A DNA stretch of 14,461 bases from an uncultured Deinococcales bacterium (GTDB lineage: Bacteria > Deinococcota > Deinococci > Deinococcales > JAAFIG01): NCBI GenBank assembly GCA_964244895.1, contig CAXTKV010000057.1, positions 10,496 through 24,956 on the forward strand. Direction: 5' to 3'. The position numbers and the translations under genes are program-made. Below, piece after piece: positions 119 through 13,782 of this stretch. Below the pieces are notes generated by a model that saw nothing but the letters and a program-made list of their open reading frames with translations, was not told where the DNA came from and did no database searches. How positions within the stretch are numbered: position 1 is the stretch's first letter; every line of letters begins with the position of its first letter.

Positions 119-181
119 GAAAAAGACCGTCCAGCACGCGAATTTCGAATGCTCGAGAAGACCGTGCTGGACGGTCTTCTC
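119..181. repeat. Paired palindromic element, copy 1 (35-bp spacing); possible dhaKL terminator
   Basis: Perfect 16-bp inverted repeat, AAGACCGTCCAGCACG (123-138) with CGTGCTGGACGGTCTT (163-178). The second unit is itself palindromic (155-181). On the minus strand the stem is followed by TTTTT. Confidence 0.9.
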
Positions 182-191
182 AAAACTCGGT

Positions 192-848
192 TCAAGAAAT
201 TGTCGATCCAGCGGGGCTGGCTGGAACCTGCAAAATGGCTTCCAGAATCGTCACGACCAGCACCGTGCCGGGGTCAATCTTGCCTTCGGTGCCGCCGACC
301 CAGTTGGCGCGCCCGATCATGGATTTGAGCGGGATGGCGGCGTCCCGCCCCCGACGGGCTGCATCCAGCATGGCCGCGCCCGCGTCTTCGAGGCTCGAGC
401 CCGACTGAATCGCGTCGCGGAAGGCTTCTGCGGCGGGATGGAGCGCGTCCACCAGGGTTTTGTCGCCGGGTTTGGCCTTGCCGCGCTCCTGAATGCCGGT
501 GTCTGCGGCCACCAGCATTCGCACCAGGGTTTCGGCATCCACGCTGGATGCGCCCACAGCTTCCTTGCCCGCGCGCATCAATGCGGTCGCGACCAGGGCT
601 CCCATCGTGCTGGGTGCGTGGCGGTTGTACGTCATGCCGACGCCCGCGAACCACTTGCCCAGGTCATCGCCCGGCGGGTTGGCGGCCATGTGATCCAGCA
701 CGCCCTGAGCACCTTTGGCGACGCTCAGTCCGGTGTCGCCATCGCCCATCGCGCCGTCGAGTTGGTTGAGCTGGTCGGTGATCTCGAGCAAGCGCCGCGC
801 GGCGCGCTCGATGGCGGATTGGAATTCGGCAGCCGCAATCGTGCTCAT
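192..848 (-). CDS. dhaL: Dihydroxyacetone kinase family, ADP-binding subunit L (DAK2 domain)
   Basis: LNQLDGAMGDGDTG, RGKAKPGDKTLVDAL, GRA and DPG motifs of DhaL/DAK2; its start overlaps the dhaK stop by 4 nt. Confidence 0.9.
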   Translation of the reverse strand: MSTIAAAEFQSAIERAARRLLEITDQLNQLDGAMGDGDTGLSVAKGAQGVLDHMAANPPGDDLGKWFAGVGMTYNRHAPSTMGALVATALMRAGKEAVGASSVDAETLVRMLVAADTGIQERGKAKPGDKTLVDALHPAAEAFRDAIQSGSSLEDAGAAMLDAARRGRDAAIPLKSMIGRANWVGGTEGKIDPGTVLVVTILEAILQVPASPAGSTIS

Positions 849-1840
849 ATCTTGAAGAACGGCGTGCTGGCCGGGTGATCGAGCAGGGTGCTCAGTTCAT
901 CGTCGAGCTTCATGACGGTGATGCTCGCGCCCGCCATCTCGAGGCTGGTGGCGTACTCACCGACGAAAGCCCGGTGAACGCCGACGCCCTGGGCTTCGAG
1001 CAGGGAATGGACGCGCCGATACAGGATGTACAGTTCCTCCGGCGGGGTCGCGCCGAGCCCGTTGACCATGACTGCGACCCGGTCGCCGCGCGTCAGGGGC
1101 ATGTCCGCCGCGATCGTCTCGAGGATCGTCAGCCCGATCTCGTCGGCGGTTTCCAGCGGGCCGTGGCGCACGCCGGGTTCGCCGTGGATGCCCATGCCGA
1201 GTTCCATCTCGCCGTCCGGCACGGTAAACGTCGGCTTGCCGACCGCGGGCAGGATGCACGGCCCCAGGGCCACGCCCATGGTGCGCATGTTGGCCAGCGC
1301 CTTGACGGTCGCGGCTTCGACTTCGTCCAGGCTGCCGCCCCGCTCCGCCTTCGCCCCCGCGATCTTGAAGGCGAACACCATGCCCGCCACGCCCCGGCGC
1401 GTCTGGGCGCGGTCTGCGGTGGCGCTCGCCACGTCGTCCTTGACCAGTACGGTGCGCACCGGGACGCCTTCCAGGTCGGCCATCTCGGTGGCCATGTCGA
1501 AGTTCATGACATCGCCTCCGTAGTTACCGTAGATGTACAGCACGCCCTGGCCGCCGTGAATGCGCTTGGTGACCTCGAGCATCTGATCGGCGCTCGGGGA
1601 CTGGAACACGTCACCGATGGCGCAACCGTCCAGCATGCCCTGCCCGACGTAGCCCAAAAAGACGGGCAGGTGGCCCGAGCCGCCGCCCGTGGCCAGCGCC
1701 ACCTTGCCCTGCATGGGCGCATCGGCGCGCACCAGACAGTGCAAGTCACCGACGTGCGCGACCATCTTCGGGTGCGCCATGTAGACGCCCTCGAGCATTT
1801 CAGAGACGAAATTCTTGGGGTCGTTCAAAATTTTTTTCAC
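845..1840 (-). CDS. dhaK: Dihydroxyacetone kinase family, substrate-binding subunit K (DAK1 domain)
   Basis: MKKILNDP N-terminus, GGGSGH, NYGGD.MNF, RRGVAG, GMGIHGEPG (substrate-binding His), VNGLGATP and TSLEMAG; GTG start preceded by GGAGGT. Confidence 0.93.
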   Translation of the reverse strand: MKKILNDPKNFVSEMLEGVYMAHPKMVAHVGDLHCLVRADAPMQGKVALATGGGSGHLPVFLGYVGQGMLDGCAIGDVFQSPSADQMLEVTKRIHGGQGVLYIYGNYGGDVMNFDMATEMADLEGVPVRTVLVKDDVASATADRAQTRRGVAGMVFAFKIAGAKAERGGSLDEVEAATVKALANMRTMGVALGPCILPAVGKPTFTVPDGEMELGMGIHGEPGVRHGPLETADEIGLTILETIAADMPLTRGDRVAVMVNGLGATPPEELYILYRRVHSLLEAQGVGVHRAFVGEYATSLEMAGASITVMKLDDELSTLLDHPASTPFFKI

Positions 1841-1976
1841 GCTAAACCTCCGACGAGTCTGGAACCTCGAGCGATGCTGGACTCCCTATTCCGACGCGGC
1901 AATCATACAGGCGCAGAACGCGGCTCGGGCCACCGATGATCGCGACCCGAGCGCAGCTTGACTGGATTCAAAAATC

Positions 1977-2037
1977 GAGAACAACGTCCAGCACGCACAT
2001 TTTTGGCATCGAGAATTCACGTGCCGCACGGTCTTTC
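1977..2037. repeat. Paired palindromic element, copy 2 (degenerate, 35-bp spacing)
   Basis: GAGAACAACGTCCAGCACGC ... CGTGCCGCACGGTCTT; centres at 1990 and 2025. Confidence 0.75.
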
Positions 2038-2190
2038 CACGCAACCTCGCCCAATTCATCCGGCGCCTAGCGGAATCTTCAGGTGCGCTGCGCCGAAACC
2101 ACCCCATGCGAAGGTCTGATCGGCGCGTGGGCAACACCCGTGAGCGGGTTCATGAAATCGACATCCTGACCGAAGCGTGAGCCGCACCAC

Positions 2191-2219
2191 TTGACCTGAA
2201 GCGCTCAAATTCGGAGAAT
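2191..2219 (+). promoter_or_regulatory. Candidate sigma70-type promoter for the ABC-mtnKA-aldolase operon
   Basis: TTGACC (2191-2196), 17-bp spacer, GAGAAT (2214-2219); the -10 is imperfect. Confidence 0.35.
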
Positions 2220-2296
2220 GGGCGCGTTCAACAATTCAGATAGACCGCGTCCGACATGGACATTTTGCGCCACCATGTTGGCGGAATGCACCGAAT

Positions 2297-2312
2297 TTGC
2301 AAACGATTGCAA
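2297..2312. promoter_or_regulatory. LacI/GalR-family operator-like palindrome
   Basis: TTGCAAACGATTGCAA is an AT-rich near-perfect palindrome matching TGnAAnCGnTTnCA, about 40 bp upstream of the first permease start. Confidence 0.7.
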
Positions 2313-2352
2313 GCGTGCGGCACGCGACCTAAACACCATTCGAGGAGTTCAC

Positions 2353-3363
2353 TTGCGGCAACTGCTGACGGACACCCACCTGCGCTTTCTGGTCGCCGCC
2401 AACCTCGCGATCCTGGTCGTGGCGTCTATCCTTTCAGGCGGAACCTTCCTCGATCCGTACAACTTTCAGAGCATGGCCACGCAATTGCCCGAAATCGGCC
2501 TGCTGGCCATCGCCATCGGCATCACGATGATCTCCGGCAACGGCGGCATCGACCTTTCCGTGGTCAGTATCGCCAACCTGTCCGCCATCGTCGCGGGATT
2601 GGTGATCCGCGCCACGCTCGGCACGGAAGGTCAGGGCGTGACCTTCACGCTGGTGTTCGTGGTGATCGCGCTGGTGGTCGGCACGCTCTGCGGGCTGATC
2701 AACGGCCTGCTCGTCTCGAGGGGCAACTTCCCGCCGATCCTCGCGACGCTCGGCACGCAGTTCGCATTCGTCGGGCTGGCGGTCGCGCTCTCGGGCGGGC
2801 CAGCGGTCGGATTGGGGTACGTCGAACCGTTCGTGGAAATTGGCAACGGCAACCTGCTGGGAATCCCGATCCCGTTTCTGATCTTCATCGCGGTCGTGCT
2901 GGTCTTTTCGTGGGCGCTGACCCGCACGCGCTTCGGCTTCCGGCTGTACCTGATGGGCACGAACGCCAAAGCTGCGCATTTCACCGGAATCGACAACAAA
3001 GCCGTGCTGCTGGTGACCTACACGCTTTCGGGCGTGGTGGCATCGATCGCTGGAACCGTGATCGCGTCGCGCGCCTCGAGCGTCAAATGGGATTACGGCA
3101 CGTCGTACCTGCTGATCGCGATCCTGATCGCCGTGATGGGCGGCGTCAACCCGTCCGGCGGGTACGGCAAGATCCTCGGACTGGTGCTCTCGAGCTTCGC
3201 CCTGCAGATGCTCTCGAGCACGCTGAACCTGCTGGGCACGTCAAATTTCTTGAAGGATTTCACCTGGGGGCTGCTGTTGCTCCTGTCGATCATGTTGACC
3301 AGCGCACGATTCAATCCCTTCCCGAAAACACCCACGCCACCCAAGGAGGTGAAGGCGAGCTAG
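2353..3363 (+). CDS. Sugar ABC transporter permease (CUT2, RbsC/LsrD-like)
   Basis: Hydrophobic protein with GGIDLSV, GLINGLLV, PILATLGT, TRFGFRLYLMGTN and GGVNPSGGYG. Start moved from the ORF-track 2218 to the in-frame TTG at 2353, which follows GAGGAG (2342-2347). Confidence 0.9.
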   Translation: MRQLLTDTHLRFLVAANLAILVVASILSGGTFLDPYNFQSMATQLPEIGLLAIAIGITMISGNGGIDLSVVSIANLSAIVAGLVIRATLGTEGQGVTFTLVFVVIALVVGTLCGLINGLLVSRGNFPPILATLGTQFAFVGLAVALSGGPAVGLGYVEPFVEIGNGNLLGIPIPFLIFIAVVLVFSWALTRTRFGFRLYLMGTNAKAAHFTGIDNKAVLLVTYTLSGVVASIAGTVIASRASSVKWDYGTSYLLIAILIAVMGGVNPSGGYGKILGLVLSSFALQMLSSTLNLLGTSNFLKDFTWGLLLLLSIMLTSARFNPFPKTPTPPKEVKAS

Positions 3364-3426
3364 AAGCAACACGCGGTTCTTGAGGTCTCGATAGCCAACG
3401 TTCCGAAGCCAATTCCAGGAGGTCGT

Positions 3427-4416
3427 ATGAAGAAAGCCATGATTCTCGGAGCTGGACTGCTGGTCGCCGCCGCCACGGGCGGAGTTCTGGCGCAGAAGAA
3501 ATACACGATCTACACGGTCGTCAAAATCACCGGCATCAACTGGTTCAACCGCATGGAAGAAGGCGTCAAGCAATACGCCAAGGACACCGGCAACAACGCC
3601 ACCCAGACCGGCCCCGCCCAGGCGGACGCCGCCCAGCAGTTGCAGGTCATCACCGACCTGGTGGCCAAGAAGCCAGACGCGCTGGCGGTCGTGCCATTCG
3701 ATCCGGCCACGCTGGAACCGATCTTCAAACAGGCGATCGATCGCGGCATTAAGGTCGTGACCCACGAAGCCGACAACCAGGTCAACACCCTCTACGACAT
3801 CGAAGCCTTCGACAACGTGGCCTTCGGCGCGAACCTGAACGCGCGCCTGGAAAAGTGCATGGGCGGCGCGGGCAAATGGACAGTCTTCGTCGGTAGCCTG
3901 GGATCGAAAACCCACAACCAGTGGGCGGACGGCGGCATCGAGAACGCCAAGAAGAACTCGAAGATGGTGCTGGTGGACGCCAAGCAAGAAACCAACGACG
4001 ACGCCGACAAAGCCTACGAGAAAGCCAAGGAAATCATCAAGAAGTACCCGGACATCAAGGGCTTCCAGGGCAGCGCCAGCACCGACGTGGCCGGCATCGG
4101 TCGCGCCGTGGAAGAGGCCGGGTTGAACGACAAGGTCTGCGTTTACGGCACCAGCCTGCCCTCGATCGCCGGTAAGTACATCGCCACCGGCGCGGTCGAC
4201 GGCATCGGTTTCTGGGACCCGAAGGACGCTGGCATCATCATGAACAAGGTCGCGCAGATGGTGCTCGAGGGCAAGACCGTCAAGGACGGCGCGGACCTGG
4301 GCATCAAGGGCTACAACAAGGTTTCCGTCACCAAGGGTAAGGGCGCTGGTTTCGTGATTCGCGGCAACGCCTTCGTGGACGTGGACAAGAGCAACTACAA
4401 GGAATTCCCGTTCTGA
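3427..4416 (+). CDS. Sugar ABC transporter substrate-binding protein (type 1 PBP, LsrB/AI-2-like subfamily)
   Basis: Sec signal peptide [58 protein letters not shown] and [17 protein letters not shown]. Confidence 0.9.
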
Positions 4417-4433
4417 TCTGAAGCAATAATGCA

Positions 4434-4486
4434 AACACCGTCCAGGACGCGATTCCTGAAGTGCGTCCCGGACGGTGTTCTCGAGA
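4434..4486. repeat. Paired palindromic element, copy 3 (25-bp spacing)
   Basis: AACACCGTCCAGGACGC (4434-4450) with GCGTCCCGGACGGTGTT (4463-4479), one mismatch, followed by CTCGAG. Confidence 0.9.
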
Positions 4487-4660
4487 AGCGGATCGAAGTG
4501 CAATGGTGCATTCCTCGGAACGCCGAAAGGTCAACTCGAGATTCGCCTTCAAAGCAACGTCAAGACGGTTCGAACGCGGAGCGGCGGACGCGCGCTCGAG
4601 CACCAGGTGAGTCCTGATGACTTGCACACCACACACAACGCGAAAACAAGAGAAAACCCA

Positions 4661-6208
4661 ATGACGACACCGACAAACGCGCACAACCTCAAACCCGGCG
4701 ACGAATTCCTGGCGCTCAACGACATCACCAAAACCTTCGGCGGCGTGCGCGCCCTGCGCGGCGTCAGCCTGAGCATCCGCGCGGGCGAGATCTACCACTT
4801 GCTGGGCGAGAACGGCTCAGGGAAATCGACGCTAATCAAGATCGTCTCCGGCGCGCAACCGCCCGACAGCGGCACGATGACGGTGCGCGGCAAGGAATAC
4901 AGGAAGCTCGAGGCGCTCGAATCGCTCGAGGCGGGCATCGAGACGGTCTACCAGGACTTGAGCCTGTTCCCGAACCTGAGCGTCGCGGAAAACGTGGCGC
5001 TGACCGCGCAGCTCGTGCAGAACGACGGGCGTCTGGGGCGAATGCTCAACTGGAAGAAACTCCAGGAGACCGCCAGCAGCGCCCTGGAACGCGTCGGGCT
5101 CGAGTCCACGACGGAATTTCTGGATCAAAAAGTCGAAAGCCTGCCGATCGCCGTGCGGCAACTCGTGGCCATCGCCCGTGGGCTGGCGACCAGCGCGTCA
5201 TTGGTGATCATGGACGAACCCACGGCGGCGCTGACGCAAAAAGAAGTCGAGAACCTGCTCTCGATCATCTCGAGCCTGCGCGCGGACGGGGTGAGCGTGC
5301 TGTTCGTCAGCCACAAACTCGACGAGGTTTTCCGCATCGGCGGCAACGTGATCGTGCTGCGCGACGGACTGAAAGTCGCGGATGGCAAGCTGAGCGATTA
5401 CAGCCAGGAGCAAATCAGCTTCCTGATGACCGGCAAGCACCTGGACAAAACCAGCTACCGCACCGGCAAGCCCGGCGCACAGGCGCTCCTCGAGATCAAA
5501 GGGCTCTCGCGCAGCGGGGCATTTTCAGGCGTGAGCTTCAACCTGCACCGGGGCGAGGTGCTGGGCATCACGGGCTTGCTGGATTCCGGGCGCAACGAAC
5601 TGGCGCTGGCGATTTCTGGCGTGCAACCCGCAGACGGCGGCCAGATCGTGCTGGACGGTCAAACCATCAGCGTCCAGAACCCGCGCGATGGCATCCGGCT
5701 CGGCATCGGCTACGTGCCCGAAGACCGACTGACCGAAGGTTTATTCCTGCAAAAACCGATCCGCGAGAACATCGTGGTCAGCATCCTGGATCGATTGATG
5801 CGCGGCAACCAGATCGACTTCCAAAAAAGCACCCTCGCCACCGAAACACTGGTCAAGGATTTGCAGATCGCCACGCCGAACGTGATGCTGCCCGCCCAGA
5901 GCCTGTCCGGTGGCAACCAGCAACGCGTGATGGTCGCGCGCTGGCTGGCGATCAACCCGAAAGTGCTGCTGCTGCACGGCCCGACCATGGGCGTGGATGT
6001 CGGCAGCAAGGACGCTCTCTACAGGATCGTGCAAGATTTAGCGCAGAAGGGATTGGGCGTGATCATCATTTCCGACGACCTGCCGGAATTGTTGATGAAC
6101 TGCGATTCGATTCACGTCATGAAAAAAGGCCGCATCGCCCGAACCTTTCAGGTCGAAGGGCTCGAGGAATCCGTGTTGTCTCACGAACTCCTGACCGAGG
6201 CCGCATGA
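4661..6208 (+). CDS. Sugar ABC transporter ATP-binding protein (two fused ABC domains, RbsA/MglA type)
   Basis: Walker A GENGSGKST, Q-loop VYQD, IMDEPT, VSH, YVPEDR and LSGGNQQ. Start taken as ATG 4661 because the ORF-track extension to 4475 begins inside a repeat. Confidence 0.93.
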   Translation: MTTPTNAHNLKPGDEFLALNDITKTFGGVRALRGVSLSIRAGEIYHLLGENGSGKSTLIKIVSGAQPPDSGTMTVRGKEYRKLEALESLEAGIETVYQDLSLFPNLSVAENVALTAQLVQNDGRLGRMLNWKKLQETASSALERVGLESTTEFLDQKVESLPIAVRQLVAIARGLATSASLVIMDEPTAALTQKEVENLLSIISSLRADGVSVLFVSHKLDEVFRIGGNVIVLRDGLKVADGKLSDYSQEQISFLMTGKHLDKTSYRTGKPGAQALLEIKGLSRSGAFSGVSFNLHRGEVLGITGLLDSGRNELALAISGVQPADGGQIVLDGQTISVQNPRDGIRLGIGYVPEDRLTEGLFLQKPIRENIVVSILDRLMRGNQIDFQKSTLATETLVKDLQIATPNVMLPAQSLSGGNQQRVMVARWLAINPKVLLLHGPTMGVDVGSKDALYRIVQDLAQKGLGVIIISDDLPELLMNCDSIHVMKKGRIARTFQVEGLEESVLSHELLTEAA

Positions 6209-6221
6209 GCGCCGCAGCACC

Positions 6222-6270
6222 CGAGAAGACCGTCCTGGACGCGAAATATAAAGTGTGTCCAGGACGGTGT
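6222..6270. repeat. Paired palindromic element, copy 4 (25-bp spacing)
   Basis: ACCGTCCTGGAC (6229-6240) with GTCCAGGACGGT (6257-6268), a perfect 12-bp inverted repeat. Confidence 0.9.
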
Positions 6271-6329
6271 CCCATGCAACTTCCAGAATCAATCCAGCAT
6301 CTTCAAATTGACTCGACTCGAGGTCAGAC

Positions 6330-7343
6330 GTGTCCGTGATCGCACCGACGCAACCCAGAACCCCGATCCGCGCCTGGCGGTCGTTTACCCGCCGACCCGA
6401 GTTCATCACGCTCGCCCTGATCGTGGTGTTTTCCCTGGCGGTCGGGATCATCAACCCGAATTTTTTCTCGCCGAAGACCGTGACGGACACGCTGCGCGCT
6501 TCCATTACCACGGGCATTTTCGCGTTGGGCGTGCTGCTGGTGCTGGCGGCGGGCGGTATCGACGTGTCGTTCACAGCCATCGCGATTTTCGCGCTCTATT
6601 CCACTACCCGGCTGATGCTGGCAGTCTGGCCGGGCGCGCCGTACCCGGTGATGATCCTGTTGTGCCTGGGCATCGGCTTGCTGATGGGCATGCTGAACGG
6701 CTTCCTGGTGTGGCGCTTCGCCGTGCCGTCCTTGATCGTGACCATCGGCACGCAGTATTTGTTCAGCGGCTTTCTGAAAGCCTTCATCGGCAGCAGGCAC
6801 ATCATGGACATCCCCGCCGCGATGGATTCGGCGGGCACGACCGCGCTCTTTCAGACCGTGACCGCCGACGGCACGCGCATCGCCGTACCGATACTGGTGC
6901 TGGTGCTGGTGCTGGCGATTATCGTGACGTGGTTCATCTTGAACCGCACGCTGCTGGGCCGCGCCGTCTACGCCGTCGGCGGCAGCATCCCGATCGCGGA
7001 ACGGTTGGGGTTCAGCGTGCGCACCGTGATGCTGTTCGTGTTCGGTTACGCGGGCATGTTGGCCGGATTGGGCGGACTGATGCACGGGTCGTTGAACCGT
7101 CAGGCCAACCCGTCCGATCTGGTTGGCTCTGAACTGAACGTGATCGCGGCGGTCGTGCTGGGCGGTGCGCGCATCACGGGCGGCACGGGCACGGTGCTGG
7201 GCACGCTGTTGGGCGTGGTGCTGATCGAGTTGCTGACCAACAACCTGATCCTGATGGGCGTGCCTTCCACCTGGCAAAAAGTGGTGATCGGCGTGATTAT
7301 TCTGGCGGCCAGCGGCGTGTTCTCGAGGCGCGGTACAGCGTGA
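6330..7343 (+). CDS. Sugar ABC transporter permease (CUT2)
   Basis: GGIDVSF, GMLNGFLV, PSLIVTIGT, TLLGRAVYAVGG and ELNVIAAVVLGGARITGGTGTVLGT; GAGG upstream of the GTG start. Confidence 0.92.
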   Translation: MSVIAPTQPRTPIRAWRSFTRRPEFITLALIVVFSLAVGIINPNFFSPKTVTDTLRASITTGIFALGVLLVLAAGGIDVSFTAIAIFALYSTTRLMLAVWPGAPYPVMILLCLGIGLLMGMLNGFLVWRFAVPSLIVTIGTQYLFSGFLKAFIGSRHIMDIPAAMDSAGTTALFQTVTADGTRIAVPILVLVLVLAIIVTWFILNRTLLGRAVYAVGGSIPIAERLGFSVRTVMLFVFGYAGMLAGLGGLMHGSLNRQANPSDLVGSELNVIAAVVLGGARITGGTGTVLGTLLGVVLIELLTNNLILMGVPSTWQKVVIGVIILAASGVFSRRGTA

Positions 7344-7346
7344 TGT

Positions 7347-7462
7347 ACCGATCTGGACGGGTTTCTCGGGCATTCGCAAAAAGATCGTCCCAGACGGCTT
7401 TCCTTGCATTGAACGCCCTCGCTCGAGCACGCGCATCACTCAATCTGGACGGTGCTCTCGAG
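7347..7462. repeat. Palindromic element cluster, copy 5 (three degenerate units)
   Basis: ACCGATCTGGACGGGTTTCTCG, AAGATCGTCCCAGACGGCTTT and CTGGACGGTGCTCTCGAG; centres at 7354, 7391 and 7446. Confidence 0.7.
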
Positions 7463-7476
7463 GGAAGTGAACGGGC

Positions 7477-8727
7477 TTGAGTTACCGAATTCTCGACGCT
7501 GAGACCGTTCTCGAGTACATGCAGTCGCACCCGAAAGCACGGGATGTGATCGACGTTGACGCCCCCCTTCAGAGCGCGGAACTTTCGGATGGCAACCTCA
7601 ATTTCGTGTTTCGGGTTTTTGAAAAAGACCGTCCAGAACGCAGCATCCTGGTCAAGCAGGGCGTTCCTTACTTGCGCGTGGCGGGTGAATCCTGGCCGCT
7701 CTCCCCTGCCCGTGCGGGCTTCGAAGCCCGCGCGCTCGAGCTTCAGCACCGTTTCGCGCCGGGGCTGGTGCCGACACCGTACTGGTTCGACGAGACCATG
7801 TGCGTCAACGCAATGGAAGATTTGCGCCACCACAACGTCATGCGCAAACCGATGGTGGATCGTGTGCGGTTCGAGCATCTCGGCGCGACGATTGGAGACT
7901 TTCTCTCGAGAACGCTGTTCGGCACGTCGGATTTTGGGCTCGAGGCGAAGGAGAAAAAAATGCTTCAGACCCGATTTGCCAACGCGGAACTCTGCGAGAT
8001 CACCGAGGATTTGATTTTCACCGAACCGTTCGAGCCCGCGCTGCTGGGAGGCAAATCCAACCGCAACCGCTTCGATCCTGGAATCAAAAACACGCTCGAG
8101 ATGCTCCAAGCTGATCTCGAGGTCAGGGCGCAAGTCTCGAGCCTCAAGCACCGCTTCATGACGGTGGCGCAGGCGCTCTTGCACGGCGACCTGCACACGG
8201 GTTCGATCATGGCTTCCGACCCGGACGAGAAAGGTGCATCGGATATTCGGGTGATCGACCCGGAGTTCGCGTTCTTCGGCCCGGCCGGATTCGACGTGGG
8301 GTTGTTCGTGGCGAATCTTTTTTTGAACGCCAGCGCTCAAGCCGGTCACGCGCCTGATGAAGACTCGAGAACCGCGTACCGGACGTATTTGTTTGGTCAG
8401 GCCAGGGCCTGCTGGACGGTCTTCGAGGGCGGTTTCCGCGAGCGTCTCCACTCGTCCAACAGCGTTTCGTGGCGATCCCGAGCGTTCCGTGACGCGTTCA
8501 TGCTCGAGGTGCTGCAGGACGCGGCGGGCTTCGCGGGCTGCGAGATGATCCGCCGAAGCGTCGGTTTCGCGCACGTTCTCGACGTGGACAGCATCGCGGA
8601 TGACGCGAAACGCGCCGAAGTGCTCGAGATGAATCTACGCGTAGGTTCAGAACTGATTCGGTCGCACCGAACCATCTCGAGTTTCAATGAAATCGAGGGT
8701 ATCGTAAAAAGCGTGATTCGCGCATGA
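7477..8727 (+). CDS. mtnK: S-methyl-5-thioribose / 5-deoxyribose kinase
   Basis: DGNLNFVF, VKQ..PYLR..GESWPL, LCEITEDLIFTEPF, LLHGDLHTGSIM, IDPEFAFFGP.GFDVG and GFAGCEMIRR motifs. Confidence 0.95.
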   Translation: MSYRILDAETVLEYMQSHPKARDVIDVDAPLQSAELSDGNLNFVFRVFEKDRPERSILVKQGVPYLRVAGESWPLSPARAGFEARALELQHRFAPGLVPTPYWFDETMCVNAMEDLRHHNVMRKPMVDRVRFEHLGATIGDFLSRTLFGTSDFGLEAKEKKMLQTRFANAELCEITEDLIFTEPFEPALLGGKSNRNRFDPGIKNTLEMLQADLEVRAQVSSLKHRFMTVAQALLHGDLHTGSIMASDPDEKGASDIRVIDPEFAFFGPAGFDVGLFVANLFLNASAQAGHAPDEDSRTAYRTYLFGQARACWTVFEGGFRERLHSSNSVSWRSRAFRDAFMLEVLQDAAGFAGCEMIRRSVGFAHVLDVDSIADDAKRAEVLEMNLRVGSELIRSHRTISSFNEIEGIVKSVIRA

Positions 8728-9785
8728 TTCAGCCCGTCCCGACCGTGGTTTTCGAGAACGACACCGTGAGCTTGCTCGATCAGACCTTGCTGCCGCTCGA
8801 GCGCAAAATGATCGAGATTCCGGACGCCGAAAGTATGTGGGAAGCCATTCAGGTTTTGCGGGTGCGCGGCGCTCCGGCCATCGGCGTGGCGGCGGGGTTC
8901 GGGCTGTGGCTGGGCGTCAAGGGCGTGCCGGATGACGCACCTCGAGAAACCTTCCTGGCGAGGCTCGAGGAGGTTCGGGCGTACCTGGCGACCTCGCGCC
9001 CGACCGCCGTGAACCTGTTCTGGGCGCTGGATCGGGTGGTCGCCGGGACTCGAGCATCGGTTGGAACGGTCGCAGGAGAACTCAAGAAGACCGTCCTGCA
9101 CGAAGCGCTGGCCATTAAAGCCAGTGAGGAAGCCACGTCGCTCGCCATCGGAAAGTACGGCGTGCCGCTCCTGAACGGTGTTCAGAACGTGCTAACGCAC
9201 TGCAACGCGGGTTCGCTTGCCACGACGGGCATCGGTACGGCGCTCGCCCCGATTTACGCGGCGGCGGCGCAGGGGCAGATCGTGCACGTCTACGCCGACG
9301 AGACGCGCCCGTTGCTGCAAGGCTCCCGACTGACCGCCTGGGAATTGCAGCAGGCCGGGCTGCCCGTGACGGTCATCACCGACAACATGGCGGCGACCGT
9401 CATGCGCGACAAGAACATCGGCGCGGTCATCGTCGGATGCGACCGCGTGGCGGCCAACGGGGACTTTGCCAACAAGATCGGCACCTACGGCGTGGCCATA
9501 CTGGCTCGAGAACACGGCATTCCTTTTTACGTGGCCGCACCGTTCAGCACGATCGATTTCGGCACGCCGGACGGGTCGCGGATCGAGATCGAGCAGCGCA
9601 GCGCGTCGGAAGTCACGAGTTTCGGCTCGAGGCGCACCGCGCCGGATGGCGTGGACGCGTTCAACCCGGCGTTCGACGTGACCCCCGCGAAGTACGTCAC
9701 GGCCTTCATCACCGACAGGGGCGTCATTGAGGCCCCGTACACGGAAAATCTGGCGCGGGCTCGAGAGGCGTTCGAGGTCGGCTGA
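8724..9785 (+). CDS. mtnA: S-methyl-5-thioribose-1-phosphate (5-deoxyribose-1-phosphate) isomerase
   Basis: LLDQTLLP, VRGAPAIG, RPTAVNL, THCNAGSLAT, DETRPLLQGSRLTAWEL, ANKIGTY and NPAFDVTP; ATGA overlap with the mtnK stop. Confidence 0.96.
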   Translation: MIQPVPTVVFENDTVSLLDQTLLPLERKMIEIPDAESMWEAIQVLRVRGAPAIGVAAGFGLWLGVKGVPDDAPRETFLARLEEVRAYLATSRPTAVNLFWALDRVVAGTRASVGTVAGELKKTVLHEALAIKASEEATSLAIGKYGVPLLNGVQNVLTHCNAGSLATTGIGTALAPIYAAAAQGQIVHVYADETRPLLQGSRLTAWELQQAGLPVTVITDNMAATVMRDKNIGAVIVGCDRVAANGDFANKIGTYGVAILAREHGIPFYVAAPFSTIDFGTPDGSRIEIEQRSASEVTSFGSRRTAPDGVDAFNPAFDVTPAKYVTAFITDRGVIEAPYTENLARAREAFEVG

Positions 9786-9797
9786 ACTCGAGCAGAA

Positions 9798-9851
9798 CGA
9801 GAACACCGTCCAGCACGCGAATACAAAACACCGTCCTGGACGGTGTTCTCG
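9798..9851. repeat. Paired palindromic element, copy 6 (25-bp spacing)
   Basis: 20-bp arms CGAGAACACCGTCCAGCACG and CGTCCTGGACGGTGTTCTCG with one mismatch; the second unit is the perfect palindrome AACACCGTCC-T-GGACGGTGTT (9827-9847). Confidence 0.92.
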
Positions 9852-9864
9852 GAAAGGTGAGCGA

Positions 9865-11850
9865 ATGGAAAGCCTCTGGGACGACGCACAAGCAGCCAAA
9901 TGCACGACGGAACTCGAGCTGCGGGCGTACACGTCCAGGTTGCTGGGCGCTCGAGAAGACCTGGTGCTGGCGGGCGGTGGCAACACGTCGGTCAAGCTGA
10001 GCATGACGGACGTGTTCGGACAGGATCTCGCGGGCATGTGGGTCAAGGGCAGCGGCGGCGCGCTGGTCAGCATCACCCAAAAAGGTTTCGCACCCGTCAG
10101 GTTGGATCATCTGCTGGCGCTCTCGAACCTCGAGAAGCTGTCCGACGCGGACATGATGCGCGAGTACAGCTTGAGCCTGCTCGACCCGGACGCGCCCTTC
10201 CCGAGCGTCGAGGCGATCCTGCACGCGCTCCTGCCGCACACGTGGGTGGATCACACGCACGCCGACGCCCTAGAAACCATCATGGACACGCCCTCCGGCG
10301 AGGCTCGCGTGCGCGAACTGTACGGCGAGACCGTCGTGTACGTGCCCTACGTCATGCCGGGATTCGATCTGGCGCTGGCCTGCAAAAAGGCCTACGCGGA
10401 GCAGGCGTCGCATAAAACCATCGGCATGGTGCTGCTGCACCACGGCATTTTCTCGTGGGGCGAGACCGCGCGGGAATCCTACGAACGCATGATCGATCTG
10501 GTCACGCGAGCTGAGCAGTACCTCGAGGTGCGTGGCGCGTGGCATCTCGAAATCCAGAAGCCCGAGGCGGCGAAACCGCTCGGTGCCGACATCGCGCGGC
10601 TCCGGCACGAGATATCCAGCGTCGCGGGCGCACCGATGATCGTGCAACGGTTGGAGGACGATCTGAGCATCGCCTTCTCGAGACGAGCCGATATTTCAGA
10701 CGTGGCGACGCGCGGCCCCGCAACCGTGGATCACGTCTCCTGGACGAAACACCAGCCGTTGATCGGGCGAGACGTTCGGGCCTACGCCGACGCCTACCGC
10801 GCGTATTTCGAGCGCCACGCATCCACGGCCCGCACCGGTTCGACCCTGGCCGAATTGAGCATGATCGACCCTGCGCCGAGGGTCGTGATCGACGCGCGGC
10901 TGGGCGTGCTGACGGCGGGACGCACCGTGCCCGACGCGCGCACGACGGGCAAGATTTACGCGCAGACCATCCAGATGATCGAGCGCGCCGAACGACTGGA
11001 ATCGTGGAACACGCTGCCCGAAGGACAATTCTTCGAGATCGAATACTGGGAATTGCAGCAGGCCAAATTCAAGAAAGGCCCGAAGCTCCCGGACTTTTCC
11101 GGCGAGGTGATGCTGGTCACGGGCGCGGCCTCCGGCATCGGCAGGGCGTGCGCGGAAGCGTTTCTGGCTCGAGGCGCCGCCGTCGTCGGGCTCGACCTGA
11201 ACGCCAGCATCACGACCACGTTTGAGCGACCCGAGTACCTGGGCATCCAGTGCGACGTGACCGACGAGAACGCGATTCAGTCCGCGCTCGAGCGAACCGC
11301 GCAACGCTACGGCGGGCTGGACATGCTGGTGCTGAACGCCGGAATTTTCCCCTCGAGCGAGATGATTTCTTCGCTCGACCTCGAGCGTTGGCAGCGCGTC
11401 ATGCGCGTCAACCTGGACGCCAACCTGAGCCTGATGCGAGAAGCGCACGGGTTGCTGAAGCTCGCGCCGAACGGCGGGCGAGTCGTGGTGATCGCGTCTA
11501 AGAACGTGCCCGCACCGGGGCCTGGAGCGGCGGCCTACAGCGCATCCAAGGCCGCACTGACCCAACTGGCTCGGGTTGCCGCACTGGAATGGGGCGCGGA
11601 CGGGATTCGCGTCAACGTGCTGCACCCGAACGCCGTGTTCGACACGGGCATCTGGACGGAAGACGTGATTTCAAAACGCGCCGAGAGCTACAAGCTGAGC
11701 GTCGAGGAATACAAGAAGAACAACGTGCTGCACACGGAAGTCTCGAGCGCGAACGTCGCGGAATTGGCAGCGGTGATGTGCGGGATGGCGTTTGCGAAGA
11801 CGACGGGGGCGCAACTCCCGATTGACGGCGGGAACGACAGGGTCATTTAG
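9865..11850 (+). CDS. Bifunctional class II aldolase / short-chain dehydrogenase (RhaD-SDR, RhaEW-like fusion)
   Basis: N-terminal GGGNTSVK, WVKGSG, PSVEAILH, VDHTHAD and HHGIFSWG; linker EYWELQQAK; C-terminal SDR motifs TGAASGIG, NAG and YSASK. Start taken as ATG 9865 after GAAAGGTGA because the ORF-track extension crosses the mtnA end and a repeat. Confidence 0.9.
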   Translation: MESLWDDAQAAKCTTELELRAYTSRLLGAREDLVLAGGGNTSVKLSMTDVFGQDLAGMWVKGSGGALVSITQKGFAPVRLDHLLALSNLEKLSDADMMREYSLSLLDPDAPFPSVEAILHALLPHTWVDHTHADALETIMDTPSGEARVRELYGETVVYVPYVMPGFDLALACKKAYAEQASHKTIGMVLLHHGIFSWGETARESYERMIDLVTRAEQYLEVRGAWHLEIQKPEAAKPLGADIARLRHEISSVAGAPMIVQRLEDDLSIAFSRRADISDVATRGPATVDHVSWTKHQPLIGRDVRAYADAYRAYFERHASTARTGSTLAELSMIDPAPRVVIDARLGVLTAGRTVPDARTTGKIYAQTIQMIERAERLESWNTLPEGQFFEIEYWELQQAKFKKGPKLPDFSGEVMLVTGAASGIGRACAEAFLARGAAVVGLDLNASITTTFERPEYLGIQCDVTDENAIQSALERTAQRYGGLDMLVLNAGIFPSSEMISSLDLERWQRVMRVNLDANLSLMREAHGLLKLAPNGGRVVVIASKNVPAPGPGAAAYSASKAALTQLARVAALEWGADGIRVNVLHPNAVFDTGIWTEDVISKRAESYKLSVEEYKKNNVLHTEVSSANVAELAAVMCGMAFAKTTGAQLPIDGGNDRVI

Positions 11851-11851
11851 T

Positions 11852-11900
11852 ACCGTCCAGCACACGTTCTCAAATCCGTGTCCTGGACGGTGCTCTCGAG
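11852..11900. repeat. Paired palindromic element, copy 7 (25-bp spacing)
   Basis: ACCGTCCAGCACACG (11852-11866) with CGTGTCCTGGACGGT (11877-11891), followed by GCTCTCGAG. Confidence 0.9.
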
Positions 11901-11940
11901 CTTGACCCGTCGGATCAAATCGTCTGGATCGCAGGCCGCG

Positions 11941-11946
11941 TAGAAT
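11941..11946 (+). promoter_or_regulatory. Leaderless -10 promoter element for kynU
   Basis: TAGAAT lies exactly 6 nt before ATG 11953, with no Shine-Dalgarno sequence. Confidence 0.65.
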
Positions 11947-11952
11947 CACGCC

Positions 11953-13188
11953 ATGATCTCGAAAGAAGATATTCTGGCGCTCGACCAGTCCGATCCGCTC
12001 GCAGGTGTCCGCGATGAATTCAGCGTGCCGGACGGACTGGTGTACCTGGACGGGAACTCGTTGGGCGTGCTGCCCAAGCGCGTTCCTTCACGCCTCGAGC
12101 GAGCGATCAGGCAGGAATGGGGCACCGACCTGATCCGGTCGTGGAACAAAAACGATTGGATCGGTTTGCCCGCGCGGGTCGGCGCACAGATTGCGCGGCT
12201 AATCGGTGCAAACGCAGATGAGGTGATCGCGGCGGATTCGACCAGCGTGAACCTGTTCAAAATCCTGCTGGCCGCGCTGAAATTGCGCCCCGACCGGCGC
12301 GTGATCGTCAGCGACATCGATAATTTCCCAACCGATCTGTACATGGCGCAGGGCGTGAACGCGCTCTTGGATGATCGGCTCGAGTTGCGGTTCGTCAAAC
12401 GAGATCAGCTGATGACTGCGATGGACTCGAGTGTGGCGGTCGTGATGCTGACGCAAGTCGATTACCGCACGGGCGAGTTGCTGGACATGAAGGGCATCAC
12501 GGACGCGGCGCACGCGAACGGCGCGTTGATGATCTGGGATCTGGCGCACAGCGCGGGCGCGTTCCCGGTGCACCTGAACGCGTGCGACGTGGATTTCGCG
12601 GTTGGGTGCGGTTACAAGTACCTGAACGGCGGCCCCGGCGCTCCTGCGTTCTTGTTCGTTGCGCATGAACACCAAACCCAGGCCGTGCCGGTGCTGTCGG
12701 GCTGGATGGGGCACAAGAACCCGTTCGAGTTCACGCCGTGGTACGCGCCCGCAGAGGGTGTCGGGCGGTTAACGGCGGGCACGCCGAGCGTGCTGGGACT
12801 GACCGCGCTCGAGGCGGCGCTCGAGGTCTTCGATGGGATCGACATGAACCTGGTGCGCCAGAAATCGCTCGGGTTGACGGGCGCGTTCATCGCGTTGATG
12901 GAACCGTTGCGCCAGGAATTTGGGTTCGAGTTGGTGACGCCAAAGGATGGCGCGCTGCGCGGTTCGCAGGTCAGTTACGCGCACGATCAGGGCTACGCGA
13001 TCATGCAGGCATTGATCGCGGACGGTGTGATCGGTGATTTTCGTGCGCCGAACATCGTGCGCTTCGGGTTCACACCGTTGTACACGCGTTACGCGGATGT
13101 TCAGGAGGCTGTGGATCGGTTAGCGCGGGTGATGCGAGAAAAACGTTGGAATCTCGAGCAGTACAGGGAACGCGCCGCCGTGACCTGA
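11953..13188 (+). CDS. kynU: Kynureninase (PLP-dependent)
   Basis: YLDGNSLG, DSTSVNLFK, NFPTDLY, WDLAHSAGA, GCGYKYLNGGPGAP (PLP lysine), RGSQVS and GVIGDFR. Confidence 0.95.
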   Translation: MISKEDILALDQSDPLAGVRDEFSVPDGLVYLDGNSLGVLPKRVPSRLERAIRQEWGTDLIRSWNKNDWIGLPARVGAQIARLIGANADEVIAADSTSVNLFKILLAALKLRPDRRVIVSDIDNFPTDLYMAQGVNALLDDRLELRFVKRDQLMTAMDSSVAVVMLTQVDYRTGELLDMKGITDAAHANGALMIWDLAHSAGAFPVHLNACDVDFAVGCGYKYLNGGPGAPAFLFVAHEHQTQAVPVLSGWMGHKNPFEFTPWYAPAEGVGRLTAGTPSVLGLTALEAALEVFDGIDMNLVRQKSLGLTGAFIALMEPLRQEFGFELVTPKDGALRGSQVSYAHDQGYAIMQALIADGVIGDFRAPNIVRFGFTPLYTRYADVQEAVDRLARVMREKRWNLEQYRERAAVT

Positions 13189-13230
13189 ATGAAAGTAGGC
13201 GTCTCGAGGATTGGCTTTGTCGAGATTCGC

Positions 13231-13650
13231 TTATTGATCCAGCACCTTCGACCAGATCGCTGGGCTGGCCGGGTTGGCGCTGGCGGTGATTTTCAGGATC
13301 GTGTGGGCGTCGGGGTACTCGAGCAGACGCGTGAATTCGTGAGGTGCCATGACGCATTCCTTGAAGTTGATCGCGCCTTTGGCGGAAAGTCCTTCCAGCA
13401 AATCCTCGAGCGCTCGCTTGCCGCTCGCGCCGTAGCGCGGGCCGAAGGCGTCCTCGGAGAGCGCGATGCGTTCGCCGCTTTTGATCAGCACGGCGTAACG
13501 GGCGGTATCGCGGCGATCCTGCCAGTCGGAAAGGATCGTGACGATGGCGTGTTTCAGGTCGAAGCCCTTGACGGCGGATTGCAGCGCCGACAGGGTTTCG
13601 AGCGGTGAGCCTTGCAGGCCGATGGGGTCGAGGTTTGGGGCTTCGGTCAT
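13231..13650 (-). CDS. Conserved hypothetical protein, probably DUF3197-like (Deinococcus-Thermus)
   Basis: Clean 139-aa ORF with its own leaderless -10. DPIGLQGSPLETL, SDWQD.R..ARYA and AFGPRYG..G..AL resemble DUF3197 proteins as recalled; not verified by search. Confidence 0.7.
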   Translation of the reverse strand: MTEAPNLDPIGLQGSPLETLSALQSAVKGFDLKHAIVTILSDWQDRRDTARYAVLIKSGERIALSEDAFGPRYGASGKRALEDLLEGLSAKGAINFKECVMAPHEFTRLLEYPDAHTILKITASANPASPAIWSKVLDQ

Positions 13651-13656
13651 GGCTCG

Positions 13657-13662
13657 AGCCTA
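13657..13662 (-). promoter_or_regulatory. Leaderless -10 promoter element for the 13231..13650 gene
   Basis: The minus strand reads TAGGCT-CGAGCC-ATG, a TANNNT hexamer 6 nt before the start codon. Confidence 0.55.
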
Positions 13663-13697
13663 CGGCGTCCGGCGCAGCTGTGGCAAGAGCGTGACGG

Positions 13698-13750
13698 GAA
13701 GACCGTCCAGCACGCGAATTCTTTGATCTCGAGAGCACCGTCTGGGACGC
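13698..13750. repeat. Paired palindromic element, copy 8 (35-bp spacing)
   Basis: AAGACCGTCCAGCACGCGAATT (13699-13720) is identical over 22 bp to 123-144; the second unit is CTCGAGAGCACCGTCTGGGACGC. Confidence 0.88.
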
Positions 13751-13782
13751 TCTACTGGAAATGATTCAGGTTTGAGGGCGGG

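Follow-up and report, generated by a model that had tools for sequence, protein, structure and literature searches.

A degenerate 27-bp palindrome is repeated about 5,450 times in the genome of an uncultured Deinococcales bacterium, and a weaker form of the motif lies at the IHF position in the replication origins (oriCs) of many of its relatives, which makes it likely that the repeat represents a docking site of an HU-type DNA-bending protein in multiplied form. We somewhat favour the view that it is the putative site of an HU-family bender that has been multiplied into a BIME-1-like repeat. HU is commonly treated as sequence-blind. On the matter of how bacteria that lack IHF set a sharp bend at oriC, att sites and plasmid origins, the more than 5,000 naturally amplified copies yield a concrete predicted site. 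If this reading is true, the motif could be used to spot origins and att sites across the phylum. Moreover, an architectural-protein site would itself be the repeat, spreading without insertion, which would bear on the origin of REP-like elements and on their role at gene ends.

The paired element in the window and in the genome

The window (the whole 14,461-nt stretch of DNA that was analysed) had been described in an earlier note as carrying a dispersed palindrome in eight of ten intergenic gaps. This description holds: the window's genes leave ten gaps, the two without the element are 63 and 42 nt long, and a symmetric 29-column profile of the unit gives a unit pair at each of the eight loci, all of which lie where they had been placed. 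Pairs with centres 35 bp apart occupy 119–182 (just past the stop of a dhaL-like gene; centres 133/168, 26.9 + 33.1 bits), 1976–2039 (the divergent dhaK/permease gap; 1990/2025, 25.6 + 17.2 bits) and 13,695–13,758 (the gap between a comB-like gene and a hypothetical gene; 13,709/13,744, 25.0 + 22.3 bits). Those with a spacing of 25 bp lie at 4430–4486 (14 nt past the stop of a sugar-binding protein gene; 4444/4469, 29.0 + 27.8 bits), 6222–6275 (past an ABC ATPase stop; 6236/6261, 23.1 + 21.9 bits), 9798–9851 (past the mtnA stop; 9812/9837, 23.8 + 36.9 bits) and 11,845–11,900 (abutting the stop of an aldolase/SDR gene; 11,859/11,884, 10.4 + 23.3 bits). At 7340–7462 there is a decayed pair (7354/7391, spacing 37, 7.9 + 23.8 bits) with a lone half-unit at 7445–7462. 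The motif ACCGTCCNNNACG, allowing up to one mismatch, occurs 33 times against 1.85 expected, a count reached in none of 200 shuffles.

Two features that the note had put forward fared less well. The hairpin is not the conserved property: five of the eight loci fold strongly (z −5 to −7.5 against shuffles), but folding at 1972–2042, 7344–7466 and 13,692–13,756 is no stronger than in shuffles. The outer CTCGAG, too, is no constant component of the unit: just 935 of 10,906 unit ends have it exactly in phase. Its excess is family-wide, in genomes without the repeat, and pairing in the palindromic CTCGAG flanks is no higher than in shuffles. Nor is placement exclusively intergenic, as single units also lie within mtnK (7621–7649, 19.7 bits; 8366–8394, 17.8 bits), mtnA (9083–9111, 19.7 bits) and, more weakly, the aldolase/SDR gene (11,715–11,743, 12.7 bits) and kynU (12,015–12,043, 12.0 bits). 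The mtnA unit aligns without gaps to three family orthologues and is therefore not an insertion.

The motif, whose confinement to this locus the note had raised as an objection to its own reading, is found genome-wide. The unit consensus is aagAAcACCGTcC.GgACGGTgTTctt, with a core of CCGTCC-N-GGACGG and A-rich flanks, and about 1,770 pairs of units have centres 25/26 or 35/36 bp apart. A spacing of 45–46 bp is almost absent, though pure helical phasing predicts it. Spacers are fixed in length and variable in sequence (706 of 758 distinct in one class, 467 of 467 in the other). The paired copies are all distinct (758/758 and 467/467), none being identical to another over its full length, and a few pairs have an identical 46-bp interior with unrelated flanks. 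Within the unit, the invariant core CGT-N5-ACG sets half-sites about one turn apart, the identities of G−4 and T−3 are 97–98% conserved, and A stands at −9/−10 in 76–81% of unit halves. The −5/−4 step is CG, TG or CA in 10,691 of 10,906 halves, which puts two pyrimidine-purine steps at a distance of 9 bp, the kink spacing of IHF and HU, though such a step would stay pyrimidine-purine under transitions alone. The element's flanks carry AA/TT with a period of 11–11.5, phased to the element (power 63–65, against at most 9 for control anchors), and the same phasing is seen in coding flanks.

Convergent gaps carry an element in 408 of 490 cases, divergent gaps in 310 of 535 and co-directional gaps in 1,298 of 2,528; the elements peak within 25 nt of stop codons, and their density is low in some contigs. 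Gene interiors, 77% of the genome, hold 388 of 5,880 hits (7%); strong sites there nevertheless number 55, against 3–4 after synonymous resampling. The pheT gene carries a 36-spaced pair in gap-free alignment to five orthologues, its length unchanged, and purD a 46-bp pair that adds about one codon. Together with the mtnA unit and the interior excess, we count these length-neutral or nearly neutral copies in favour of overwriting.

The note had also seen neither a GTAG/GGAG-type tag nor a RAYT transposase, and neither was found: in 3,728 element ends GTAG occurs 38 times (about 45 expected) and GGAG 55 times (about 69), and the assembly, 91% complete, has no match to PF01797 (Y1). A transposase search that covered Y1, IS110 and TnpB likewise found no IS110 or TnpB gene. 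Target-site duplications, which the note had suggested looking for, did not emerge as a clear excess of 2–8-nt direct repeats at 14 boundaries in three classes. A MITE is disfavoured by the lack of a clear duplication signal, the all-distinct copies and the failure to find Y1, IS110 or TnpB genes, the transposase types that the search covered. At the RNA level, the transcribed orientation has no pairing bias (G.U 529, A.C 601), the element has no strand asymmetry, and left-right covariation is absent from the 49 class. It is seen in the 39 class at two pairs of positions, 7/32 and 9/30 (z about 7.5), a pattern compatible with either a hairpin stage or subfamilies. Given the lack of G.U bias and of 49-class covariation, and the phased AA/TT flanks, we read the constraint as probably acting on DNA and not on RNA.

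Use of the unit across the phylum

As a high-copy repeat the element is restricted to this genome and its close relatives (1,987 matches here, at most 42 in any of 363 other Deinococcota genomes). Paired copies are present in relatives at 82–93% identity, and element position and sequence turn over between them. The sequence comparisons support the unit as a predicted double-stranded protein site, used at IHF-type positions across the phylum. Of the note's two alternatives, a REP-like family specific to the lineage and a protein-binding site found genome-wide, both are supported at once: the repeat is lineage-restricted, and the unit behaves phylum-wide as such a site.

In a first set of 25 oriCs, the best profile match precedes the R1-equivalent DnaA box by 19 nt in 15 cases and by 20 nt in 3. 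In this set f5 peaked at −54, and the same z was reached at some offset by 29% of shuffled profiles. In an independent set (one genome per genus; 30 test origins, of which 12 were not anchorable and were dropped), the best match is centred 18–20 nt from the box in 12 of 18 anchored Deinococcota oriCs, while 1,000 column-shuffled symmetric profiles gave a mean of 0.9 and a maximum of 9. In absolute terms these 12 matches score low (−15 to +15 bits), and they are unevenly spread over the families, falling in 7 of 9 Trueperaceae-like (f2), 2 of 2 f4, 2 of 5 Deinococcus-like (f3) and 1 of 2 f5 origins. The IHF consensus in the oriC of E. coli begins with the base at nt 19 from R1, and Table 1 of PMC12854757 makes that base the centre of the 9 bp between kinks. 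The R1-R5M interspace is described as bound by IHF, and by HU with DnaA (PMC10325909).

Perfect palindromes occur nine times in the 363 other genomes (control, 0). Seven lie 13–16 nt past a tRNA 3' end, four of these beside a Pfam-confirmed tyrosine integrase, and the remaining two are in loci with direct-repeat arrays adjoining Rep genes. Five of the seven tRNA-adjacent copies share the same tRNA-Ala site and are therefore not independent; these copies are also readable as intrinsic terminators. The contexts of the perfect copies are tRNA/integrase junctions and iteron origins, with a terminator role possible for those next to tRNA genes.

Candidate readers of the site

In the reading that we favour, the unit would be the preferred site of an HU/IHF-family DNA-bending dimer, the Deinococcota counterpart of an IHF site. 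An HU-type dimer would introduce kinks at the two CG steps, which are separated by 9 bp, and would wrap the flanking A/T-rich DNA. In a pair, with about 2.4 or 3.4 turns between the units, two dimers would come to lie on nearly opposite faces, giving an S-shaped double bend. Bends of this kind at gene ends would anchor supercoil loops, or act as insulators against supercoiling driven by transcription, a role proposed for E. coli BIME-1/RIB elements. Spread of the repeat is likely a slow process of short-patch copying or gene conversion, in which existing copies overwrite near-matches, and not one of cut-and-paste insertion. A bolder version, in which the HU proteins of Deinococcota act as IHF equivalents guided by sequence, with CCGTCC-N-GGACGG as their symmetric code, the site propagates itself in the genus by overwriting near-matches through short-patch conversion (even in essential pheT), and some 1,800 double U-turns at gene ends, trans-phased and with curved flanks, form a nucleoid-loop scaffold encoded in the genome, strikes us as doubtful.

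IHF is described as bending DNA at points 9 bp apart, aided by an A-tract (PMC8421141), with kinks at TT/AA steps, not CG (PMC12854757), and HU is presented as sequence-non-specific, its occupancy of the oriC interspace requiring ATP-DnaA (PMC10325909; PMC11194088). HU genes were found in 31 of 31 genomes searched, and this genome has three. The arm tip GV[KR]PGT is present in 25 aligned HU proteins, where E. coli IHF chains have RNP. This genome's HU genes look ordinary for its family and thus offer no explanation for the amplification of the site.

It is fairly unlikely that the element is an ordinary selfish hairpin of the REP/REPIN kind, retained because it terminates transcription or stabilises mRNA 3' ends and mobilised by a single-strand transposase that the assembly lacks, its resemblance to oriC and att sites being secondary or coincidental. 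Its bias to convergent gaps and stop codons is of the REP type (compare PMC3733652), and the five strongly folding window copies, the 39-class covariation, the shared 46-bp interiors, the turnover between relatives and the incomplete assembly all suit such an origin. However, it would leave the oriC register and phased flanks unexplained, and the three window copies that do not fold, spacers fixed in length and not in sequence, the missing G.U bias and strand asymmetry, and the failure to find the tag or a Y1, IS110 or TnpB gene argue against it. We also think it unlikely that the double-stranded site is read by another conserved Deinococcota dimer (helix-turn-helix, Fis-like or XRE type). Such dimers read half-sites about one turn apart, as in CGT-N5-ACG; the 17-bp DdrO motif RDRM, TATGYYHTTARCRKA, described from repair-gene promoters (PMC8533742), has a similar geometry, Deinococcus prophages carry repeated promoter-like units with this palindrome at their flanks, and HU's reported non-specificity points the same way. 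Yet the site occurs at the IHF/HU register of oriC, near att cores and in iteron origins, not in promoters alone, and 19 of 20 Deinococcus prophage proteins had no tblastn match in this genome, the single match being weak (E 0.004). DdrO's own motif was rejected, having an AT-rich centre and other flanks, whereas the unit is GC-rich at its centre and located downstream of genes.

Natural transformation offers another route. Neisseria DUS and Haemophilus USS are signals for biased DNA uptake, and a motif of that kind could accumulate by point substitution. Length-neutral sites in coding DNA, the excess in gene interiors, contigs of low density, and inverted pairs past stop codons with phased AT-rich flanks would all be in keeping with this. 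We nevertheless consider it improbable, as gene interiors hold so few of the matches and neither the rigid 25/35 spacing nor use at oriC, att sites and plasmid origins would be expected. Least probable is that no dedicated protein is involved, and that an intrinsically bendable sequence was selected wherever a sharp bend is needed and is bound indirectly by any nearby nucleoid protein. Flexible CG steps, A-tracts and phased flanks would suit this, and HU is reported to occupy pre-bent DNA (PMC10325909), but the conservation of G−4 and T−3 seems to exceed what shape alone needs.

Relation to known repeats and architectural sites

With the GTAG and CGTC REP superfamilies and REPIN-RAYT systems (as described in PMC3733652) the element shares high copy number, inverted doublets, a convergent/downstream bias and lineage restriction. 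It differs in having no unpaired terminal tag (CGTC lies within the stem), no G.T pairing bias and no RAYT. GTAG REP/REPIN-RAYT fits poorly, as neither the terminal tag nor, in the 91% complete assembly, a Y1/RAYT gene was found, although the extragenic inverted doublets and their bias agree. CGTC REP families 1–4, with an unpaired terminal CGTC, an 8–9-bp stem starting with AT and a CCA tail (PMC3733652), were set aside too, as CGTC here belongs to the paired core and is rarer than expected at the ends of elements (93, with about 228 expected). According to PMC2229807, Neisseria Correia/NEMIS is a small repeat with an IHF site and a MITE with clean filled and empty sites, and Caulobacter CIR a highly conserved repeat with the methylation-site pentamer GANTC (compare the CTCGAG hexamer here); in contrast to both, the present element has no target duplication and its coding copies are length-neutral.

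E. coli BIME-1/RIB, as presented in PMC3333891, is likewise a dispersed extragenic repeat at gene 3' ends with an architectural-protein site (putative here). There, two GTAG-tagged REPs, tied to TnpA-REP, enclose a conserved linker that holds the IHF site. In the present element it is the arms that would be the sites, the linker varies, neither a tag nor a Y1 transposase was found, and copies number in the thousands.

IHF is reported absent from D. radiodurans (PMC11194088); PMC10325909 describes the oriC interspace of Thermotoga maritima as bound by HU and includes T. thermophilus among the origins surveyed for potential HU regions. The unit is symmetric and GC-cored and does not match the IHF consensus WATCAAnnnnTTA, the E. 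coli IHF site scoring −56.9 bits on its profile. Still, it shares with that site the 9-bp step spacing, an A-tract flank and use at att junctions and iteron origins, and, with both the E. coli oriC IHF site and the HU-bound interspace of T. maritima (PMC10325909), the place and 19-nt register at the DUE-proximal DnaA box.

The repeat unit and its placement in the genome

All eight element loci of the earlier note were found at the positions it gave, in eight of the ten gaps between the window's genes, and the element core occurs 33 times in the window against 1.85 expected. The genes are dhaL-like and dhaK-like, a sugar ABC transporter, mtnK, mtnA, aldolase/SDR, kynureninase, a comB-like gene and a 139-aa hypothetical protein (13231-13650, minus strand) with no NCBIfam match at 1e-10. 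Between 192 and 11850, genes for DHA kinase subunits are divergent from the sugar ABC transporter, mtnK, mtnA and aldolase/SDR; this set likely provides methylthioribose or 5-deoxyribose uptake and a DHAP-shunt pathway.

The motif is not confined to this locus, and the repeat is real and genus-restricted. Across the assembly (5.12 Mb, 328 contigs, 91% complete), a half-site profile gives 5,880 matches in 2,810 clusters, compared with 18 matches in the reversed genome; 388 of the 5,880 fall inside genes called with our own codon-model caller, though 77% of the genome is gene interior. In consensus the unit reads aagAAcACCGTcC.GgACGGTgTTctt, a degenerate palindrome of 27 bp, and its symmetric profile finds 5,453 units versus 118 in the reversed genome. 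Centre-to-centre spacings are 25/26 (n = 963) and 35/36 (n = 804), with minor classes at 30/31 (n = 57) and 41/42 (n = 41), and 45-46 nearly empty. Within pairs the outer halves are kept and the inner halves degraded, and paired copies are all mutually distinct (758/758 in pair class 39, 467/467 in class 49).

An element is present in 408 of the 490 convergent gaps, in 310 of the 535 divergent ones and in 1,298 of the 2,528 between co-directional genes, at about one per gap and with a peak at most 25 nt from stop codons. A link to expression was rejected, with no clear trend across codon-bias quintiles: occupancy is close to 50% in the upper four and 36% in the lowest. In the flanks, AA/TT dinucleotides keep phase with the elements at a period of 11-11.5 bp. 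The power is 63-65 for classes 39/40 and 28 in coding and non-coding flanks alike; it is at most 9 at intergenic control anchors (three sets) and falls to about 2 after jitter. Five contigs (C164, C173, C187, C190 and C5), probably islands of recent acquisition, have no or almost no elements, and native DNA may be recognisable by its element density.

Distribution among relatives and spread

A 16-nt pattern matches 1,987 times in this genome, 42 times in G193, 17 times in G069 and at most nine times in each of the other 361 Deinococcota genomes. The G069 matches examined are coding matches within an IS-like gene. G193 has its own conserved repeat, one strong unit with a weak partner, 36 nt apart in 7 of 16 matches. 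This separate family, to which the 42 matches belong (loci L025, L030, L035, L040, L045 and L227-L230), has a conserved core, about 70 bp long, that holds the site, with arrays of short degenerate repeats on its flanks. No congener was present among the genomes searched, and the family of our bacterium is represented by incomplete assemblies. Its proteins and relatives suggest that the order is Deinococcales. Sequencing run X1 contains a close relative, with four long pieces about 89-93% alike to the window and with paired copies. Dozens of contigs from this run end at element edges. Alignment of three of the four long pieces stops at an element edge (window 4485, 11849 and 13687), hinting that elements mark points of rearrangement or replacement. 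Elsewhere, metagenome contigs hold 27 loci with the single-unit pattern (four with pairs, likewise from close relatives) and no match to the paired pattern, a viral sequence scan gave one unrelated-looking match, and plasmid and phage BLAST gave only short, chance-level matches.

The comparison of orthologous gaps that the earlier note had proposed was made at three loci (82-90% identity). Elements follow the same genes there, and since their sequence and offset differ, the family turns over. Some copying of elements takes place: a neighbour at four differences or fewer exists for 56 class-39 copies, compared with 15-37 in the nulls, and a few element pairs share an identical interior between unrelated flanks. 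Confident genes contain 55 strong sites against 3-4 after synonymous resampling, and the partners of these sites cluster at 25, 30 and 34-36 bp. Three genes were compared with orthologues. Alignments with five orthologues for the 36-spaced pair in pheT, and with three for the mtnA unit of the window, contain no gaps, and in both genes amino-acid changes complete the arms; the purD pair takes 15 codons versus 13-14 in most of 13 orthologues. These data fit a repeat that would spread by short-patch conversion from existing copies, the alternative being strong selection on point changes.

A candidate reader and the replication origin

The best conserved positions of the unit are C-5, G-4 and T-3 with their mirror images, counted from the centre; C-5/G-4 being conserved on both sides, there are two pyrimidine-purine steps 9 bp apart. 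The unit also has A at -9/-10, and the A-tract of an IHF site lies at about -9 to -14. The prolines of IHF bend DNA at points 9 bp apart, helped by an A-tract (PMC8421141). D. radiodurans is described as having HU and no IHF, H-NS or Fis (PMC11194088), and HU is called non-specific in the literature. HU was found in all 31 genomes searched, and its arm tip reads GV[KR]PGT in 25 of 25 aligned proteins. Our genome has three HU genes (C103:16593-16886, C117:13596-13862 and C10:5198-5500), one of them closest to the HU of PDB 5EKA. Thermus-type and Deinococcus-type HU both occur in its family, the third HU being found in this genome, and an HU heterodimer is possible. On balance, we lean towards the unit being the equivalent, in Deinococcota, of the IHF site, with HU as its predicted reader. 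In the literature searched, which covered the HU specificity of Deinococcus, its oriC and the excess of CTCGAG, the motif is not described.

Proteobacteria use IHF at tRNA/integrase junctions, iteron origins and prophage promoters. The perfect palindrome has nine copies in 363 other genomes (control, 0). Seven have their centre 13-16 nt beyond the 3' end of a tRNA, five of them at the same tRNA-Ala site and four with a tyrosine integrase within 1.5 kb; some tRNA-linked sites have short direct repeats, read by eye, between site and integrase. Two of the nine lie at loci where direct-repeat arrays adjoin RPA or Rep3 initiator genes, and at both a unit has the repeats on one side and an AT-rich tract on the other (at L078 a second site, 272 nt away from the perfect palindrome, takes this place). 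In our genome, a unit of at least 10 bits follows 10 of 70 tRNA calls at +15 to +17; on contig C151, an array of 24 tRNA calls has an element after several of them. In Deinococcus prophage-like regions, unit pairs flank promoter-like units at 77, 79, 79, 88, 88, 88, 89, 89 and 73 bp, spacings that fit 25.5 + 10.5n except for 73 bp, but the promoter-like units are homologous to each other. This promoter-like unit, conserved and about 160 bp long (L001 960-1125 and 1940-2115; L002, L003, L058, L059, L063) has TTTACT-17-CAGACT between two site copies, followed by an RBS, and drives two Pfam-less genes. A prophage-encoded binder was rejected, as 20 proteins searched in our genome gave one weak match (E 0.004).

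Given these IHF-type places, a site in oriC was therefore predicted. The first set started from 29 dnaA loci; contig ends truncated two and a third lacked an origin downstream, which left 25 besides our own. In 15 of 25 origins the best profile match precedes the last full DnaA box, beside the CTA trios, by 19 nt, and in three by 20 nt; our genome's own oriC has a 7.3-bit unit at -19. The -19 signal is equalled by 1 of 1,000 shuffled profiles, 291 of 1,000 reach that z at some offset, and group f5 peaks elsewhere. For the second set the prediction was fixed beforehand: of 30 new loci, one per genus, a motif-blind pattern anchored 18, and the other 12 were dropped. The best match fell at -18 to -20 in 12 of 18 origins (Trueperaceae-like f2, 7/9; f4, 2/2; Deinococcus-like f3, 2/5; f5, 1/2), and shuffled profiles reached a mean of 0.9 and a maximum of 9, none attaining 12. 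The oriC sites, with the consensus gct.t..gcCGTcc.ggACGgc..a.agc, are degenerate, as their low scores indicate. Counted from R1 in E. coli oriC, nt 19 is where the IHF consensus has its first base; this base is the centre of the 9 bp between kinks, going by the overlap of two IHF dodecamers in Table 1 of PMC12854757. The sections on the oriC interspace in PMC10325909 describe IHF binding there through sequence and HU only with ATP-DnaA; they include T. thermophilus in a survey of origins for potential HU regions and give no motif.

Comparison with known repeats and sites

The earlier note had offered a lineage-specific REP-like family or a genome-wide protein site; the repeat is indeed genus-restricted, and the unit is likely an IHF-site counterpart. 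As that note had seen, element ends lack GTAG and GGAG tags; a terminal CGTC is also absent (definitions in PMC3733652). Of the transposase families searched, Y1, IS110 and TnpB, none has a gene in the 91% complete assembly, and no target-site duplications flank the elements. Rfam gave only a chance miRNA match in the window (E 0.23), and only a tRNA over seven Deinococcus loci.

The hairpin folding proposed earlier did not hold throughout, as three of the eight window copies fold no better than shuffles. In transcribed orientation, class-39 stems have 529 G.U versus 601 A.C mismatches, and class 50 alone leans toward G.U (176 versus 149). Arm covariation in class 39 (positions 7/32 and 9/30, z about 7.5, also -1/40) counts against a protein-site reading; in class 49 it is almost absent. 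Elements as serine-integrase attB/attP (classes 39 and 49) were rejected, the hybrid 44/45 class being rare. Type II topoisomerases cut with a 4-nt stagger; the unit as such a cut site was set aside by reasoning, its dyad centre being odd. The Deinococcus matches were also rejected as IS ends, since they are prophage promoter-like units or coding matches in IS-like genes (G069, G049).

The hexamer CTCGAG, which the earlier note had included in the unit, is in excess 12.7-fold here (21,883 copies), 13-34-fold in sampled family members, all without the repeat, and 2-10-fold in several other families; six sampled Deinococcus-like genomes show no excess (0-1.3-fold). Because the excess occurs family-wide without the repeat and is absent from Deinococcus-like genomes, it is a separate phenomenon, and CTCGAG as an integral part or target of the element was rejected; we liken it to a HIP1-like hexamer. 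The element itself would work like BIME-1/RIB, yet by their defining features it belongs to none of REP, CGTC, MITE and BIME-1.
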